From Alphaproteobacteria bacterium (GTDB lineage: Bacteria > Pseudomonadota > Alphaproteobacteria > GCA-2746255), in contig OZ252220.1 of the NCBI GenBank assembly GCA_965249135.1, positions 1,056,001 to 1,120,000 of the forward strand: 64,000 nt of DNA. Reading direction: 5' to 3'. How positions within the stretch are numbered: position 1 is the first letter of the stretch; every line of letters starts with the position of its first letter. This document shows, piece after piece, positions 2,226 through 50,811 of the stretch. The notes under the pieces were generated by a model. That model had not been told where the DNA came from. It searched no databases and saw only the letters and a program-made list of their open reading frames with translations. A program made the translations under genes and the position numbers.

Positions 2226-2534
2226 GGGGATTATATACGATTTTAGCCAAATACTGTCTAACTAATTGATATAACGAGATATTATGTCTCTTGACATTAC
2301 GCCGTCGTAACCCTATATTTCTAGCCATGGGGAGACAGAACATGGCGAAGCGCAACAAACCCGAGATCATGAGCACCTGGGACTTCATGGCGCGGTTCCC
2401 GACGGACAAGGATGCGCCCCACCTGCGGCAGCGGCGCCGCGATGGATATAGCCATCGATGAGAAGGCGGGCAGCACCTGTCGCCGTCGTGATGCAACTCA
2501 CCATCTGACCTGTGACATCCCGTATATAAGTCCC
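2226..2534 (+). mobile_element. internally deleted IS1595-family element (MITE-like)
   Basis: Ends GGGGATTATATACG / CGTATATAAGTCCC; ATG at 2342 gives MAKRNKPEIMSTWDFMARFPTDKDA, resembling an IS1595 transposase N-terminus, then truncated. Confidence 0.75.
2291..2319 (+). promoter_or_regulatory. sigma70-type promoter
   Basis: TTGACA-N17-TATATT upstream of GGGGAG and ATG at 2342. Confidence 0.6.
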
Positions 2535-2654
2535 GAAAATTGCGGTTGCATAACCACTGGCCCGCTCAAGGAAACTTGGGCGGGCTACTCTTTGGCACAA
2601 AATCAACACATAAAAACAAAAAGGCCAATTGAAACAACGCCAGACTTGGTGCGA

Positions 2655-2705
2655 ACGTCCTTGGTAAGGGTGAGGTCGAGTGTTCGATCCACTCCGGCGG
2701 CACCA
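2655..2705 (+). pseudogene. 3' half of tRNA-Thr(GGT); att-site core
   Basis: CCTTGGTAAGGGTGAGGTCGAGTGTTCGATCCACTCCGGCGGCACCA: anticodon arm, T arm and CCA present, no D arm or 5' acceptor strand. Confidence 0.8.
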
Positions 2706-2828
2706 CGAAACCCCTTGAAAATAAAGACTTGTAAAAATGTAGCGTCAAAACTAGTTACAGTTATTGACGGAACTTTACGAGAACTAACGTGCAATTACGA
2801 TAAAATACGTGCAAAATCCGCGCACGCC

Positions 2829-2843
2829 GTTCTTGATGTGTTC
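2829..2843 (+). promoter_or_regulatory. alphaproteobacterial LexA (SOS) box
   Basis: GTTC-TTGATGT-GTTC (GTTC-N7-GTTC) upstream of GGGAGG and ATG at 2859. Confidence 0.6.
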
Positions 2844-2985
2844 CCTAGGGAGGTTTCTTATGACAGCGAAAGACACATCATATCTGGAATTGCTGGAAGG
2901 GTTGGATCCACCGCACTAAGCGCGGCCTACTCAATGCCTGGTATCATCATCAAGAACGGCAAGCCAATTCTGGCTTAAGGGAGTC

Positions 2986-3000
2986 AAGTATATAATTCCC
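2986..3000 (-). mobile_element. isolated IS1595-type terminal inverted repeat
   Basis: AAGTATATAATTCCC, identical to the ends at 5890, 49486, 49841 and 50196. Confidence 0.7.
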
Positions 3001-3041
3001 CAAGCAAACACCAGTGGCCGTCATCGCCACATTTTATCCAT

Positions 3042-3502: not shown

Positions 3503-3661
3503 TGCATCTGCAACAGAAAAGGTGTCATTTAAGTCACGATTTCGCCACATCTCTGGCAGTTTAGCGGTGGCTCTTTCCCGGCGCTTTCTTGCTCATGATC
3601 CGTCCTCTTGTAATGTGACTCTGCTGTAAAGGAACGGCCCAGTAATGCCAACGCCAAAATG
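3503..3661 (-). pseudogene. IS1595 transposase 5' remnant (MSKKAPGKSHR)
   Basis: 3503-3613 nearly identical to the interior of the 347-bp units; minus strand encodes MSKKAPGKSHR then stop; 3644-3661 matches the subterminal sequence at 48048-48065. Confidence 0.6.
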
Positions 3662-3729
3662 CGGTATTAGGTAGCAAACGCACCTAAAATCCCCTCAAAT
3701 CTTCTCGTGGGATTTCATATGCTTAGGGC

Positions 3730-4836: not shown

Positions 4837-5106
4837 GGGGATTATATACGAAAGTCACATTTTACCGGTAAAGAGGATGGCCGGTGCATCTGCAACAGAA
4901 AAGGTGTCATTTAAGTCACGATTTCGCCACATCTCTGGCAGTTCAGCGGTGGCTCTTTCCCGGTGCTTTCTTGCTCATGATCCCGGGGGATTTGTGCTTG
5001 CTCATGGATAGAAATATGGGGATATGACACGCCAATGTTAATCCATAAAATAGTAAGCAATATCAGCTATATAATACTGATACGGCTAGGATTGTATATA
5101 AGTCCC
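4837..5106. mobile_element. 270-bp IS1595-derived MITE
   Basis: GGGGATTATATACGAAAGTCACATTTT ... GTATATAAGTCCC; first ~147 bp shared with the units at 49140-50196. Confidence 0.8.
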
Positions 5107-5122
5107 AAAAATTGAGGCCATG

Positions 5123-5150
5123 AAAAAAGGCCGGGGTTACAGCCCCGGCC
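5123..5150 (-). terminator. intrinsic terminator
   Basis: GGCCGGGG-N6-CCCCGGCC hairpin with adjacent A6 (U-tract on minus strand). Confidence 0.55.
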
Positions 5151-5266
5151 CATGGTCCCCGCTTCAACTAGAAGGCCGCTGCGGGGCAAAGTGAATTTTC
5201 AAGGTGGAGTATTTCCCCCCTGAATCACGAAGTCAAGCGGCCTTCGATTAAACGACGGAGGCCATA

Positions 5267-5593
5267 ATGGCTGACACACCTACAATCGACTGGGCCGGAA
5301 AATCTGGCAAAACATATCGGCATTGGATTTTCCCGCTTCCTCCGAATTTCAAGGCGGAGGAAGGTAACTACGTTTTTGCCAAAGAAACCGCGCCGAATAA
5401 CGGAAAGTGGTTGCCAATCTACATTGGGCAGACGGAAAACCTTAACGAGCGCTTCGACGACCATCATGCAATGCCTTGCATAAAACGAAACGGGGCTACG
5501 CATATTCACGCACACGCGAATAAATCAAAACAGACGCGTCTCGATGAAGAGGCCGGCCTGATAGCCGAATGGAACCCGCCATGTAACGGTTAA
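5267..5593 (+). CDS. GIY-YIG-like nuclease domain protein
   Basis: GNYVF...PIYIGQTENLNERF..H, distal E; GGAGG RBS. Confidence 0.7.
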   Translation: MADTPTIDWAGKSGKTYRHWIFPLPPNFKAEEGNYVFAKETAPNNGKWLPIYIGQTENLNERFDDHHAMPCIKRNGATHIHAHANKSKQTRLDEEAGLIAEWNPPCNG

Positions 5594-5781
5594 CGGGTTT
5601 TAGGCCGTTGGGGGTTTTCCGAATCTGAAAAATCGTTTTGGGAAACCCCCATCTGGTCCCTCACGCTCGCTGTCTTATGTAGTTTCGGCGGCGTATTCAG
5701 CATCCGCTTGGCGAGCGCATCCCGGCGTTTCGCCGTCTCTTTTTCGGTCAATTCGTCTTGATTTTTTGAGGACTTAGCCAT
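5590..5781 (-). CDS. small basic protein of the kind found downstream of IS1595 transposases
   Basis: ETAKRRDALAKRMLNTPPKLH; lies 110 bp inside the end at 5890 where a transposase would be expected. Confidence 0.5.
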   Translation of the reverse strand: MAKSSKNQDELTEKETAKRRDALAKRMLNTPPKLHKTASVRDQMGVSQNDFSDSENPQRPKTR

Positions 5782-5798
5782 GTCTGATTACCAGTTCA

Positions 5799-5890
5799 TT
5801 TGCTTCGCCATAATCGCATCATGGTGCTGATGTACATCAATGTACATTGATGCGCTTGCTGCCTAATGGGGAGTTAAGTATATAATTCCC
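5799..5890 (-). mobile_element. IS1595-type end segment with 18-bp palindrome
   Basis: Nearly identical to the last ~92 bp of the 347-bp units; ends in AAGTATATAATTCCC. Confidence 0.75.
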
Positions 5891-6168
5891 AAATCAAAGA
5901 CACCCATGTTGTCAGACGCCAAAATGCGAAGACGCACTTGCGGACGGACCGCGATGGCAGGAAAAGCAACAACCTCGATTACATGGCTGGCGGCGGCTAA
6001 AGCCAGTAGGTGAAGCGCGGCTTCATAACGCGTTCATTCCTGTAATCGTCGAGATTCCGGTACAGGTTGGCCGTTATGGAGCCGTCTTCATCGTCCCGGA
6101 ATATTTCGCTCGCGATATAAATTTTATCGTCCAAGACGACGAGATAATCATAGTTTCTCAGCATCATC
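5891..6168. repeat. 278-bp dispersed repeat, copy 1 (copy 2 at 50534-50811); 3' fragment of an unknown gene
   Basis: One mismatch seen; both copies encode MMLRNYDYLVVLDD...PRFTYWL on the minus strand. Confidence 0.9.
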
Positions 6169-19854: not shown

Positions 19855-20274
19855 GGGCAGTCCAGGGCCTCCTTCACCGGTCTCAATCGAAATCGCCTGG
19901 CCGGCCGTCACGGTCGGCGTAGACGCCGCCGAAATGTTCTCGACGAGGACGTTGATGTAGCGTTCGTTGACGTTGATCTCATTGCCGGACGGGTCCTGCC
20001 AGGTCAATGGGTTAGGGTGTTTCTTGATTCGCAGAGGTGTTGACTATGTCAGCGCTGGGGCCTGCACGCGAAAATGGCGTCAAGAACAAGGCCGCCGCCG
20101 AGCTTGGCCGGCTGGGCGGTCAGGCGCGGGCGAAGAAACTGAGTTAAGAAACGGCGGGCGGAGATTGCCAGGAAAGCTGCAAAAAAAAGATGGAAAAAAG
20201 AGGAGTCTACTTGACACAAAACGAAGATTAGAGGAGTACACTTGTCACAGCTTGGGGCAAGCAGGATTCCAATA

Positions 20275-20943
20275 ATGATCGATTACTCAGCCCGCCTTTC
20301 AGCGGCATATCCGAAAACCACATATTCCGCGACGTTGCGCGGATTGAGGGAAGGCGCCGCCTTCGGCGACGAAGCAATTAAGGGCATACCAATGTTCGGC
20401 ACCCCTGTGGGCCGCGATCTTCGGGGGCTGGTACGCCGCGCGGGGGTACTGCATCGAATCCAGCAAATGTGTCGCGCAGGTGATCTACCTTTCCAATGTG
20501 AAATGATCCCTATGCCGCGAGGCAGTTGGCATTGGTTAGAACTATACAGCGCCAACATAATCTCGCATCCCGTTCGGACTGCCGATCATATTTCCTTCCC
20601 GGAAGACACTCCCAATCGCCAAGACCAGAGGACGCGGAATCAGGGGGGCTTATTTGAAGACGCCAATGTGGTTCCTGTCTCCAGTGAATCTACATTGTAC
20701 GCTTGGCTTTGCTATGGCGTAACTCGCAATGGTGCATTGACTCACGCGTGCTGGAACATGCCATCGGCGGCAAACGAAGAATGGCTCGCGCGCATTGACA
20801 TTTTGAACGCGGTTCGCGAGGAACAGTTATCTCAAGAGACGCCCTCAACGGAGAAAGTAGACCCAAGGGAAGCAATGAGCTTTAGGGACTCTATTGCCGC
20901 GACAATCGAGGGGCTAGACAAAGATAAAGATGAAAAAAAATGA
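20275..20943 (+). CDS. hypothetical protein, candidate RosmerTA-type toxin
   Basis: 222-aa ORF with ATGA coupling to an XRE-ImmA/IrrE gene; no known motif recognised. Confidence 0.65.
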   Translation: MIDYSARLSAAYPKTTYSATLRGLREGAAFGDEAIKGIPMFGTPVGRDLRGLVRRAGVLHRIQQMCRAGDLPFQCEMIPMPRGSWHWLELYSANIISHPVRTADHISFPEDTPNRQDQRTRNQGGLFEDANVVPVSSESTLYAWLCYGVTRNGALTHACWNMPSAANEEWLARIDILNAVREEQLSQETPSTEKVDPREAMSFRDSIAATIEGLDKDKDEKK

Positions 20944-47635: not shown

Positions 47636-47776
47636 TGACGGTTCGGGAGTGGCCGCCGCTTCCATTTCACGGACCCCGATGGGTACGAGCTCGCAGTGTG
47701 GACGAAAGCCTAGAAGCGGGCCGCCTTCGCCGCTTGTCGGACGTCCGACTTTAAGGGTATAAGGCGGCCCTTGGTT

Positions 47777-47853
47777 CGGAGTGTAGCTCAGCCTGGTAGA
47801 GCACCGTCTTCGGGAGGCGGGGGTCGGTGGTTCAAGTCCACTCACTCCGACCA
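47777..47853 (+). tRNA. tRNA-Pro(CGG)
   Basis: CGGAGTG acceptor stem, D arm, CCGTC-TTCGGGA-GGCGG anticodon arm, TTCAAG loop, CCA end. Confidence 0.97.
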
Positions 47854-47936
47854 GTGTTTTCAATGACTTAAATTAAAAAAAACAGTGCGCTGTTGGTTCA
47901 AATGAACCATAGGAGAGAAAAATGGTCCCAATTAAA

Positions 47937-48086
47937 GGGGATTATATACGAAAGTCACATTTTACCGGTAAAGAGGATGGCCGGTGCATCTGCAACAGAA
48001 AAGGTGTCATTTAAGTCACGATTTCGCCACATCTCTGGCAGTTCAGCAATGCCAGCGCCAAAATGTGACTTTCGTATATAATCCCC
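47937..48086. mobile_element. 150-bp IS1595-derived MITE with perfect 27-bp TIRs
   Basis: GGGGATTATATACGAAAGTCACATTTT / AAAATGTGACTTTCGTATATAATCCCC. Confidence 0.9.
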
Positions 48087-48206
48087 AAAAATATAGGGAG
48101 GTTTCATATTGACGAAGGCCTAGATGTGCACAGAATTATGGGGGCACTTGAGAAGGCCGGTGGATGACCCTGAAATTATCTTCGGGGAAGATGTTCGAGT
48201 GCTGTT

Positions 48207-48896
48207 CTATTTAGCAGCGGCCGTTAACGCTACGATAATTCCAATAATCGCTATGCCAGCGCTGACGACGACCGGAACAATCCATCTTATGCTATCTACC
48301 GAGGTAGTGAGCCTAGTAACGTCAGTGGCTAATTCCGCCACGTTACTACTTAAGGAGCGGAGCGTCGTCATCATTTCCGATAATGCCATACCTTCGCTTT
48401 CGGTGATGAACTCGATTTCTTCTGCGCCAAGTTCATCCCTGTCCTGGTAGGGGCCGTTATATGGCTCGCTCGCGGCTTCCTCAAGGCGGTGGAACTCGAC
48501 AGAAATCAGATCATCTTTGTGCGGCAGAGAAACAGGCTTTGGCGTCAAGTTTGTGAGTCCGATTATCAACCGCCCCCGATAGCCGGGGTCGATTTGGGGG
48601 CCAGTGGTCGCGATTAGACCCTTCCGGGCATATTTCGAACGAAGGCCAAATCGAGCGGCGTATTGAGCGCCGAGCTCTATTTTCTCAAAAACCACTACTA
48701 CCGCAAAGTCGCCGGGCGCAAGTTGAACAAACCCATCTTTCTTAATATCAACCCTGCGTTTGGTGCTTGTAGTGGCCCCCTGATCTCCAACCCTTAGATC
48801 GTAAGTTGCAGCCTGGACTTGCCGATCGTCAAACGGCTCAATCTTGATGTCACCATTCTCCACAGCTTCTCTAATCTGACGATCAGTAAGAATCAT
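48207..48896 (-). CDS. dCTP deaminase/dUTPase-fold protein with C-terminal coiled coil and TM helix
   Basis: MILTDRQI, YDLRVG, RSKYARKG, IDPGYRG, YNGPYQ; tail WIVPVVVSAGIAIIGIIVAL; AGGAG RBS. Confidence 0.88.
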   Translation of the reverse strand: MILTDRQIREAVENGDIKIEPFDDRQVQAATYDLRVGDQGATTSTKRRVDIKKDGFVQLAPGDFAVVVVFEKIELGAQYAARFGLRSKYARKGLIATTGPQIDPGYRGRLIIGLTNLTPKPVSLPHKDDLISVEFHRLEEAASEPYNGPYQDRDELGAEEIEFITESEGMALSEMMTTLRSLSSNVAELATDVTRLTTSVDSIRWIVPVVVSAGIAIIGIIVALTAAAK

Positions 48897-48921
48897 TGGC
48901 TTATTCTCCTAGTGCACTATA

Positions 48922-48936
48922 GAACAAAATAAGAAC
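48922..48936 (-). promoter_or_regulatory. alphaproteobacterial LexA (SOS) box
   Basis: GAAC-AAAATAA-GAAC, adjacent to a minus-strand TATAGT (-10-like), 26-40 bp upstream of the Dcd-like start. Confidence 0.7.
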
Positions 48937-49139
48937 AAATACAACCACCCTGAATGCTCTTACTTGTCCTAATTTGAAAGCCGGGCGTCCTATTTAGGAC
49001 AGCACCCTAAGCATCGGCACCTGGATATCGGATACGTAGTATCACGGTGGACGCAGGCCAAGCCAGAGCAGTGTTGGAAAAGCTGAAGCGCGGGGAAAAA
49101 CGCGGGGAAAACCCGCTAAGAGGTTGAAGCGTAAAAAAG

Positions 49140-50196
49140 GGGGATTATATACGAAAGTCACATTTTACCGGTAAAGAGGATGGCCGGTGCATCTGCAACA
49201 GAAAAGGTGTCATTTAAGTCACGATTTCGCCACATCTCTGGCAGTTCAGCGGTGGCTCTTTCCCGGCGCTTTCTTGCTCATGATCCGTCCTCTTGTAACG
49301 CGTTATTTGCGCACCCTTGTAGCCTTCGCTTAGGTCCGCTAGATCATTGTCGGGGCCCTGCCTAATTCATAACGCGCAGGCGCATCGCTGTTCTTTTGCT
49401 TCGCCATAATCGCATCATAGTGCTGATGTACATCAATGTACATTGATGCGCTTGCTGCCTAATGGGGAGTTAAGTATATAATTCCCCAATTAAAGGGGAT
49501 TATATACGAAAGTCACATTTTACCGGTAAAGAGGATGGCCGGTGCATCTGCAACAGAAAAGGTGTCATTTAAGTCACGATTTCGCCACATCTCTGGCAGT
49601 TCAGCGGTGGCTCTTTCCCGGCGCTTTCTTGCTCATGATCCGTCCTCTTGTAACGCGTTATTTGCGCACCCTTGTAGCCTTCGCTTAGGTCCGCTAGATC
49701 ATTGTCGGGGCCCTGCCTAATTCATAACGCGCAGGCGCATCGCTGTTCTTTTGCTTCGCCATAATCGCATCATAGTGCTGATGTACATCAATGTACATTG
49801 ATGCGCTTGCTGCCTAATGGGGAGTTAAGTATATAATTCCCCAATTAAAGGGGATTATATACGAAAGTCACATTTTACCGGTAAAGAGGATGGCCGGTGC
49901 ATCTGCAACAGAAAAGGTGTCATTTAAGTCACGATTTCGCCACATCTCTGGCAGTTCAGCGGTGGCTCTTTCCCGGCGCTTTCTTGCTCATGATCCGTCC
50001 TCTTGTAACGCGTTATTTGCGCACCCTTGTAGCCTTCGCTTAGGTCCGCTAGATCATTGTCGGGGCCCTGCCTAATTCATAACGCGCAGGCGCATCGCTG
50101 TTCTTTTGCTTCGCCATAATCGCATCATAGTGCTGATGTACATCAATGTACATTGATGCGCTTGCTGCCTAATGGGGAGTTAAGTATATAATTCCC
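49140..50196. repeat. three identical 347-bp TIR-bounded units (49140-49486, 49495-49841, 49850-50196) separated by CAATTAAA
   Basis: Period 355 bp; each unit starts GGGGATTATATACG and ends AAGTATATAATTCCC. Confidence 0.95.
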
Positions 50197-50331
50197 CAAA
50201 AAAAAGATGGAAAAAAGAGGAGTCTACTTGACACAAAACGAAGATTAGAGGAGTACACTTGTCACAGCTTGGGGCAAGCAGGATTCCAATAATGATCGAT
50301 TACTCAGCCCGCCTTTCAGCGGCATATCCGA
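50197..50331. repeat. 135-bp copy of 20180-20314
   Basis: Identical by eye; starts at the first base after the TIR. Confidence 0.9.
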
Positions 50332-50533
50332 TGGGAACACCTGCGCACTCTCTGACCCACTACCCGCCGATGACGCCGGTGAAGCTGAGAACGGCAAGCA
50401 CAACGATGATGAAGGCAAAAATAATCAACCCCCATTTGATGTTCGGATTGTCCTGGAAAAAACGCATGGTCTTGTTCTCCTAACAGCTCAAGCATAAAAA
50501 ACCCGCCCGGACTTCAACTGGCCGATCGCGGGG

Positions 50534-50811
50534 AAATCAAAGACACCCATGTTGTCAGACGCCAAAATGCGAAGACGCACTTGCGGACGGACCGCGATGG
50601 CAGGAAAAGCAACAACCTCGATTACATGGCTGGCGGCGGCTAAAGCCAGTAGGTGAAGCGCGGCTTCATAACGCGTTCATTCCTGTAATCGTCGAGATTC
50701 CGATACAGGTTGGCCGTTATGGAGCCGTCTTCATCGTCCCGGAATATTTCGCTCGCGATATAAATTTTATCGTCCAAGACGACGAGATAATCATAGTTTC
50801 TCAGCATCATC
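50534..50811. repeat. 278-bp dispersed repeat, copy 2
   Basis: Matches 5891-6168. Confidence 0.9.

Follow-up and report, generated by a model that had tools for sequence, protein, structure and literature searches.

A Dcd-like gene bracketed by two transposase-less miniature elements of an IS1595-family lineage beside tRNA-Pro in an alphaproteobacterial contig

Introduction

How did a single gene for a Dcd-like protein come to lie between two miniature elements that carry no transposase, just past a tRNA-Pro gene? This question is raised by a 64,000-nt stretch of contig OZ252220.1 (positions 1,056,001 to 1,120,000 of the forward strand; assembly GCA_965249135.1, Alphaproteobacteria bacterium), which is referred to below as the window. 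In it, a 150-bp miniature inverted-repeat transposable element, or MITE, termed M, and a miniature element of 347 bp, termed E1, enclose a cargo segment with the gene, termed dcd, and E1 is followed by two further copies, E2 and E3. In a preliminary description of the window, M, dcd and E1 were regarded as one mobilised unit with its own target duplication. In the present study, M and E1 appeared to be two transposase-less derivatives of one lineage of the IS1595 family bracketing a foreign 1,053-bp cassette, and their arrival as one block was well supported.

Results

Flanks of the M-dcd-E1 block

The 1,550 bp from the left end of M to the right end of E1 (47937-49486) are enclosed by two copies of the 8-mer CAATTAAA, at 47929-47936 and 49487-49494, the first of which begins 76 bp past tRNA-Pro. 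These coordinates, and the contents of the unit (a 150-bp MITE, the Dcd-like gene and a 347-bp element), were as originally described. The elements are not matched individually, M lying between CAATTAAA and AAAAATAT and E1 between TAAAAAAG and CAATTAAA, whereas the pair is. Because the inner 8-mers are missing from the outer sides, M and E are unlikely to have been inserted separately here around a resident gene. The G+C content of the inner segment is 49.8%, below that of the window (60%) and of the chromosomal DNA to the left (62%). A scan of genome contigs with the 20-nt element end yielded 45 loci, all of them records of metagenome-assembled genomes (MAGs), and no homolog of the inner segment was found either in these loci or elsewhere in the window. 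The matched outer flanks and the foreign inner DNA together provide good support for the arrival of M-dcd-E1 as a single block at a position flanked by CAATTAAA.

The 8-mer is not a fixed part of the element end elsewhere. CAATTAAA was found at none of 68 distinct ends outside the locus, and is, therefore, target DNA and not end sequence; other copies in the window also have other flanks. One-mismatch variants of it (CAATCAAA, CAATAAAA and CAAATAAA) are used as targets elsewhere, and flank positions 2, 3, 6 and 7 of the 68 ends are at least 76% A/T, which indicates a target preference. The six junction flanks at the locus are all at least 87% A+T in a window of 60% G+C, in agreement with the 79% A+T of family targets (13 duplications), and the inner flanks AAAAATAT and TAAAAAAG, at 88-100% A+T, resemble ordinary targets of the lineage. 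In the window, CAATTAAA occurs three times, always at element ends (0.82 expected; 3 of 100 shuffles reached three).

The right boundary of the elements, ...AATTCCC|, is fixed by two natural empty-site controls within the window. Beyond E3, the DNA from 50197 (CAAAAAAAAG...) matches an uninterrupted site at 20180 (GCTG|CAAAAAAAAGATGG) with 100% identity over 135 bp, and the DNA from 5891, to the right of a related 1,054-bp element, matches an uninterrupted site at 50534 with 99.6% identity over 278 bp. Since these two sites fix the boundary, the spacer in the array is 8 bp long and the flanks are target DNA.

Could the match between 47929 and 49487 be a coincidence? From flank composition, the probability of identity for two independent flanks of the lineage was 1.1e-4 to 1.5e-4. 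Empirically, two of the 2,278 pairs among the 68 ends were identical; one of them (L023/L040) is non-independent, with at least 60 bp of shared flank, which leaves one coincidence. A chance match of CAATTAAA, at about 1e-4 to 4e-4, is unlikely. These values bear on the view that no block was mobilised, the tandem array being an assembly artefact or M and E having inserted separately around a resident dcd between coincidental 8-mers. Three 100% identical 355-bp repeats are a structure that assemblers are prone to mis-size, and the array is known from the assembly; moreover, the target preference favours similar flanks, and all E-type right ends in the window are followed by (C/A)AANNAAA. However, after separate insertions AAAAATAT and TAAAAAAG would be expected on the outer sides too, where neither is present, an artefact of copy number would leave the match between 47929 and 49487 intact, and the inner DNA is compositionally foreign. 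Taken together with the low probability of chance identity, we regard this view as very unlikely.

A different reservation concerns what the 8-mer delimits. E1, E2 and E3 form a head-to-tail tandem array (period 355, 3.0 copies and 100% matches by Tandem Repeats Finder), and matching 8-mers, in each case CAATTAAA, bracket three parses, namely, M to E1, M to E2 and E2 alone. E2 has 8-bp direct repeats of its own, whereas M, E1 and E3 individually do not. Both copies named in the preliminary description abut element ends, but the bracketing of the 1,550-bp unit is not unique because a third CAATTAAA serves as an array spacer. The proposal of one mobilised unit with its own duplication is, thus, sustained for the arrival as a block, while the duplication may have been made by a single E.

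Element ends and IS1595 family assignment

The left 111 bp of M are 100% identical to the left of E, and M and E1 have the same orientation. Both M (150 bp) and E (347 bp) have terminal inverted repeats (TIRs) and no transposase, as MITEs do in the usage of PMC10969869, which also includes a length below 500 bp and flanking direct repeats in young copies, and the bracketing of cargo by two directly oriented copies of one lineage corresponds to a pseudo-compound transposon as defined in the available text of PMC12561309.

The ends of this lineage begin GGGGATTATATAC. There are six copies of the left end GGGGATTATATACGAAAGTC in the window, namely, at both ends of M, at E1 to E3 and at 4837, while the right-end type GGGAATTATATACTTAACTC occurs at E1 to E3, at 5871-5891 and, with one mismatch, at 2981-3001. 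The earlier suggestion that the unit uses ends from two different parental elements appears weak: its outer pair, GGGGATTATATACGAAAGTC and GGGAATTATATACTTAACTC, already terminates every E copy as well as the 1,054-bp element, and a special hybrid end use is, therefore, unnecessary. What does hold is that the ends of E diverge: those of E1 agree at only 16 of 20 positions, in contrast to the near-perfect TIRs of M and of most relatives. E may, therefore, have a chimeric origin, which would predate the M-dcd-E1 block. A simple deletion of the 1,054-bp element was considered as the source of E and rejected, as that element matches only positions 1-147 (99.3%) and approximately 251-347 (96%) of E, the middle part being unique. 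Approximately 40 nt inside the right end, every E copy (49431-49448, 49786-49803 and 50141-50158) and the 1,054-bp element (5835-5852) contain a perfect 18-nt palindrome, CATCAATGTACATTGATG, which could be a binding site or terminator.

Members of the IS1595 family usually generate 8-bp duplications and encode a transposase with a zinc finger and a DDE domain, according to the portion of PMC8101967 available to us. [quoted passage not shown] Profile searches with 30 open reading frames (ORFs) from these elements detected DDE_Tnp_IS1595 (PF12762) in eight, the same eight that contain the IS1595 zinc ribbon PF12760, and the 315-amino-acid protein from locus L009 matched the NCBIfam model "IS1595 family transposase" (NF033547) at 1e-56. 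The 27-nt end of M is identical to the transposase-proximal end of the elements in L007, L009, L013 and L023. Perfect 8-bp duplications directly next to GGGG were seen at 13 of the 21 non-redundant end pairs, units of 6.5 and 9.9 kb being among them; in two further pairs the flanks agree at 7 of 8 positions and in the other six at 5 or fewer. TIRs beginning with GG, common to the transposase-bearing IS1595 members, are present in M and E, and it is by their ends that we assign these two, provisionally, to the family. The ends also fit ggnnatTAT, which we take to be the end consensus of the ISNwi1 subgroup in ISfinder. No divergent right end of the E type with a duplication was found as a partner of the single ends in the loci.

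The Dcd-like gene

The product of dcd matched PF22769 DCD (1e-24, 87.8 bits against a cut-off of 27, residues 2-137), TIGR02274 (106.8 bits, curated cut-off 92.8) and the PHROG annotation "dCTP deaminase" (5e-30), while no family among the PADLOC models was matched at E <= 0.01. The gene has a predicted ribosome-binding site of its own (AGGAG, 9 nt upstream of the ATG) and its own upstream region. In dCTP deaminases, the glutamate of the TLELxN motif is catalytic. In alignments, this residue of the ...TLE(L/F)xN motif is Glu in the solved deaminases 2qxx and 4xjc, Met in the closest solved chains, 9ln0 and 8y1w, and Gly in the protein from the window. A single search returned 794 homologs at E<=0.001, which form a family of approximately 225 amino acids; among the best 120 of them (63-84% identical), the position is occupied by Gly in 119 and by Ala in one, and 107 have a C-terminal hydrophobic stretch. 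Since Gly stands at the position of the deaminase glutamate across this clade, the label "dCTP deaminase" is doubtful there, and the cargo is probably not a true deaminase. By analogy with the cargo of the lineage elsewhere, it may be a defence-type gene. A tblastn search of plasmids and phages with the Dcd-like protein gave only distant Dcd/Dut genes of no more than 36% identity, and at the level of titles and listings we found no paper on a Dcd defence system with a transmembrane (TM) segment or on IS1595 elements with defence cargo.

An SOS box had also been proposed for the gene. The motif GAAC-N7-GAAC is present 25-40 nt upstream of the ATG, its reverse complement GTTC-N7-GTTC being what we take to be the alphaproteobacterial LexA (SOS) operator, but it is not enriched in the window, with four occurrences against 2.2 expected (18 of 100 shuffles reached four). 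Scans of the region for promoters and terminators and with Rfam detected nothing above background except the tRNA. We also considered that the DNA upstream of dcd might be diverged prophage DNA like that beside the poly-A site at 20180; this was rejected because the alignment score was 11, and shuffled sequences gave 11.3 +/- 2.0.

History of the locus

The segment may be regarded as a non-autonomous, directly oriented pseudo-compound transposon, in which the block transposed via its outer ends and E was then amplified. We favour this reading tentatively, and consider its probability to be somewhat short of even. The present data show the anatomy of the locus, the family, the habit of 8-bp duplication and the foreign composition; the following order of events, with its trans-acting transposase and its amplification route, is the one that we infer. 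M and E would each have inserted beside dcd at a donor site, at the AT-rich AAAAATAT and TAAAAAAG, which would persist as the inner flanks. A transposase supplied in trans would then have used M's left end and E1's right end to insert the whole block into CAATTAAA, 76 nt past tRNA-Pro at the edge of a degraded prophage, duplicating the 8-mer; the site before insertion would have read ...GGTCCCAATTAAA.... Subsequently, E together with the right-hand 8-mer would have been amplified to three head-to-tail copies, perhaps by recombination of a circle-like junction of right end, 8 bp and left end into E1, which would give E-CAATTAAA-E, and then by unequal exchange. The outermost flank would have been replaced with CAAAAAAA later on, when the array recombined with another E copy of the prophage. 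With a composite as the founder, M-dcd is expected at the left edge of the array, as observed. Horizontal acquisition is in keeping with the closest Dcd homolog being only about 80% identical and with the wide occurrence of relatives at 63-80% identity.

Several points weigh against this reading. The 8-mer is not specific to the 1,550-bp unit because it also brackets E2 alone and M to E2. No transposase was found in the window (tblastn with the L009 transposase, best E 4.2), and M, E and the 1,054-bp element are, therefore, non-autonomous. No second copy of the unit, of dcd or of the interior of M or E was found in the 45 loci, plasmids or phages, and mobility as a unit is, thus, not demonstrated. 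Amplifying E alone from a composite founder requires an extra step through a circle or dimer, and the assembly is the one source for the perfect threefold tandem. The 1,054-bp element, the copy at 2226-3000 and E3, all of them in the window, have unmatched flanks, and recombination between copies has clearly reshuffled flanks here; since the right flank of E3 differs from CAATTAAA, at least one further event has to be assumed.

The regularity of the array suggests another course of events, in which a single E made the CAATTAAA duplication and M-dcd entered the first E by homologous recombination, without any transposition of a composite. Exchange between the flanking repeats, identical over 10 bp (CCCAATTAAA), and then between E copies would have given the 8-mer plus E three times over, and a 1,203-bp piece comprising M and the inner segment, as a circle from a donor M-dcd-E or as linear DNA, would have recombined via the shared 111 bp. 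The array is indeed regular from 47929, with the 8-mer and the left of E present three times, and the 121 nt at 47927-48047 recur without a mismatch at 49485-49605 and 49840-49960. M and the inner segment together account exactly for the 1,203 bp from the left of M to the left of E1, as expected from a single crossover with a circle. Repeats around a single E also provide a simple route to tandem duplication and excision alike, recombinational reshuffling of flanks is evident elsewhere in the window and in L023/L040, and translocatable units have been described for directly oriented insertion sequence (IS) pairs (introduction of PMC12561309). However, a donor M-dcd-E arrangement would still be required, and none was found in the 45 loci; a small, non-replicating circle would have to find its target, and with three copies already in place its landing in the first would be a one-in-three outcome. 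The end structure is identical to that from composite transposition, and nothing in the window is decisively in favour of this course, which we consider rather unlikely.

The preference of the family for certain targets allows a further possibility, namely, that a CAATTAAA-flanked E array was present first and that M-dcd-E1 transposed into its left 8-mer, duplicating it anew. The preference at flank positions 2, 3, 6 and 7, the recurrence of close variants of the 8-mer as targets and the ends of different elements that are spaced by 9 bp in L044 and by 24 bp in L027 are in accordance with such a hot spot, but the exact reuse of the same 8 bp is demanding and was seen at none of the loci. As it also needs one assumption more than either the composite or the single-E route, we consider it highly improbable. 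All three routes require one more recombination for the flank of E3, which is plausible given the one-sided junctions of the other copies.

A blastn search of plasmids and phages with 47700-50600 gave a match to the tRNA only (query 59-169), and the 45 loci contained no interior of M or E and no Dcd homolog, with a single tRNA match for the tRNA-Pro flank.

Prophage context and other copies in the window

Two prophage-like regions, related to each other, are present in the window and encode holin, endolysin, virion structural and ejection proteins. The block has tRNA-Pro on one side and the lysis end of the second region on the other, amid a patchwork of short fragments (50197-50331, equal to 20180-20314, and 50534-50811, equal to 5891-6168), and the second region has no integrase between tRNA-Pro and the lysis genes. 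Scraps of elements, together with the 1,054-bp element, are also found in the counterpart zone of the first region, to the right of an integrase gene at 866-1855. The junctions 5890|5891 and 50196|50197 each have an uninterrupted counterpart in the other region (50533|50534 and 20179|20180, respectively), and the partner junction is missing in both cases, which points to deletions or exchanges between element copies.

The 1,054-bp element carries an ORF of 108 amino acids (5267-5593) with a weak GIY-YIG match (0.0027), and this ORF is 42% identical (1e-20) to a passenger ORF of the full-length element in L009 (10899-11324). By this homology, the same passenger travels with the lineage. Another element copy of approximately 775 bp at 2226-3001 has a third left-end variant, GGGGATTATATACGATTTTAGCC, a right end of the E type and unmatched flanks, and in a relic at 3503-3680 sequence from inside E precedes a stretch similar to the right part of M. 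There are exactly two copies of the 11-mer TCAATGACTTA in the window (0 expected), at 1923-1933, 68 nt past the integrase gene, and at 47860-47870, 7 nt past tRNA-Pro. It may be the core of an attachment site; the bases that flank its two copies are dissimilar.

Relatives in other genomes

Passenger genes of the full-length relatives often look like anti-phage defence genes, to judge from profile matches. Seven of the 30 ORFs matched PADLOC models at <=1e-5 (REase_II, cytosine methyltransferase and BstA). Among the passengers are type II restriction enzymes (5.6e-83, 1.2e-24 and 3.7e-9), a cytosine methylase (2e-99) and BstA (4.4e-108). Pfam added SIR2 (1e-43) and BglII, and the 9.9-kb unit with a perfect duplication carries RelE and HSDR_N. 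The elements concerned are listed together with the features of the locus in Table 1.

Element ends are close-set at two of the loci. In L044 (9991-10001, which corresponds to L020 7456-7466), the ends of two elements lie head-to-tail 9 bp apart with the spacer CAATAAAAG, and in L027 (10020-10045) those of two elements lie 24 bp apart; the flanks of the elements are unmatched in both, and insertions may cluster beside existing ends. In L016 (4392), L031 (10001), L036 (2122) and L038 (10020), the end stands in a GC-rich and mutually similar context, e.g., GCAAGCGG(T/C)C ahead of the end and GAACGG soon past it, unlike the AT-rich flanks elsewhere, and may be embedded in another repeated unit. 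The copies in L023 (9941-10000) and L040 (7399-7458), which lie on the same chromosome of a Thalassobaculaceae MAG, have left flanks in common over at least 60 bp with one mismatch but unlike right flanks, which indicates a segmental duplication or an exchange between copies.

Table 1. Positions of the features at the tRNA-Pro locus and of related elements (window coordinates unless a locus is named)
Feature	Position	Strand	Remarks
tRNA-Pro (anticodon CGG)	47777..47853	+	ARAGORN; Rfam tRNA 59.8 bits; landmark upstream of the insertion site
CAATTAAA, copy 1	47929..47936	+	Adjoins left end of M; starts 76 nt past tRNA-Pro
M, 150-bp MITE	47937..48086	+	Perfect 27-nt TIRs; right flank AAAAATAT
Inner cargo segment, 1,053 bp	48087..49139		49.8% G+C
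Dcd-like gene, 229 amino acids	48207..48896	-	Predicted DCD domain (residues 2-137) and C-terminal hydrophobic anchor
Candidate LexA box GAAC-N7-GAAC	48922..48936	+	GTTC-N7-GTTC on the dcd strand
E1, 347-bp miniature element	49140..49486	+	Left flank TAAAAAAG
CAATTAAA, copy 2	49487..49494	+	Right flank of E1 and of the composite; E1/E2 spacer
E2	49495..49841	+	100% identical to E1
CAATTAAA, copy 3	49842..49849	+	E2/E3 spacer
E3	49850..50196	+	Right flank CAAAAAAA, differs from CAATTAAA
Prophage-derived DNA	50197..50331	+	100% identical to uninterrupted site 20180-20314; sets right boundary of E3
1,054-bp element without transposase	4837..5890	+	Same two end types as E; flanks TAATATAA / AAATCAAA
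Full-length elements with passengers	L001 11389-12495; L007 10312-11528; L028 10202-11684; L042 7789-8994; L020 6526-7290; L026 123-10020		Profile searches

Discussion

As things stand, the locus is a mobile-element mosaic of an ordinary kind. Should the block prove to be mobile, one accessory gene can be shuttled by two transposase-less relics of an IS1595 lineage that occurs with near-identical ends in several bacterial phyla, and the locus would point to a widespread family of Dcd-like proteins with a TM segment (794 relatives), in which the conserved Gly in place of the deaminase Glu suggests a function other than that annotated. The tandem array with spacers of the length of the target duplication is, moreover, a concrete structure that bears on the mode of IS1595 transposition. 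In a bolder view, the GGGGATTATATAC-ended IS1595 lineage, whose cargo in other genomes includes restriction enzymes, restriction-modification pairs, BstA and SIR2, would be a cross-phylum shuttle for small anti-phage systems, and the window would show its minimal form, moving a previously undescribed, possibly SOS-controlled and membrane-anchored Dcd-like effector without the deaminase glutamate, while the E-8bp-E-8bp-E array would be the fossil of a junction of right end, 8 bp and left end. We consider this view, taken as a whole, unlikely; if true, the array as a junction fossil would be evidence for a circular or tandem-dimer transposition intermediate in the IS1595 family.

Passenger-carrying IS of the IS1595 family were reportedly described by Siguier and colleagues in 2009. 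The full-length relatives of the present elements are of this kind, holding a transposase and passengers between one pair of ends with 8-bp duplications, whereas the cargo in the window lies between two separate miniatures, and not inside one, and is not accompanied by a transposase. The array also recalls the copy-out/paste-in families IS30, IS21 and IS911, for which head-to-tail IS dimers and circle junctions are known and in which only a short spacer, as long as the target duplication, separates the right end from the left. Here, however, a transposase-less element forms a stable chromosomal array of three copies.

Closer to the present block is Tn7560 of Actinobacillus pleuropneumoniae, a pseudo-compound transposon with two directly oriented copies of ISApl4 (IS1595 family, IS1016 group), in which ISApl4 gives AT-rich 8-bp repeats and an inverse polymerase chain reaction (PCR) product was read as a circle joined through one 8-bp repeat (PMC12561309, available text). 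As far as that text goes, the two cases share the IS family, A/T-rich 8-bp repeats and directly oriented copies around cargo, as well as a junction of right end, 8 bp and left end, detected by inverse PCR for ISApl4 and present as the chromosomal E-8-E spacer in the window. They differ in that the bracketing elements are transposase-less miniatures here, unequal in length (150 and 347 bp) and with unlike right ends, and in that the cargo consists of resistance genes in the available description of Tn7560 and of one Dcd-like gene in the window. In addition, a matching 8-mer flanks the whole unit here, whereas the ISApl4 copies of Tn7560 are described in the same text as lacking such repeats. 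The transposase of the present lineage has a zinc ribbon, which the IS1016 group lacks according to the available part of PMC8101967.

The MITE-flanked class 1 integrons of Acinetobacter, for which mobilisation by a transposase in trans has been inferred (PMC10969869, a review, available text), similarly have non-autonomous miniatures on both sides of the cargo. Within what that text covers, their MITEs are identical, whereas M and E1 are two different derivatives with 111 bp in common; the two cases also differ in family, host and cargo, and the unit in the window has a tandem array next to it. Pseudo-compound transposons of the IS1595 family and MITE-flanked mobilisation are, thus, already known, and the present locus combines two unlike miniatures around one gene with an adjoining tandem array of one of them.

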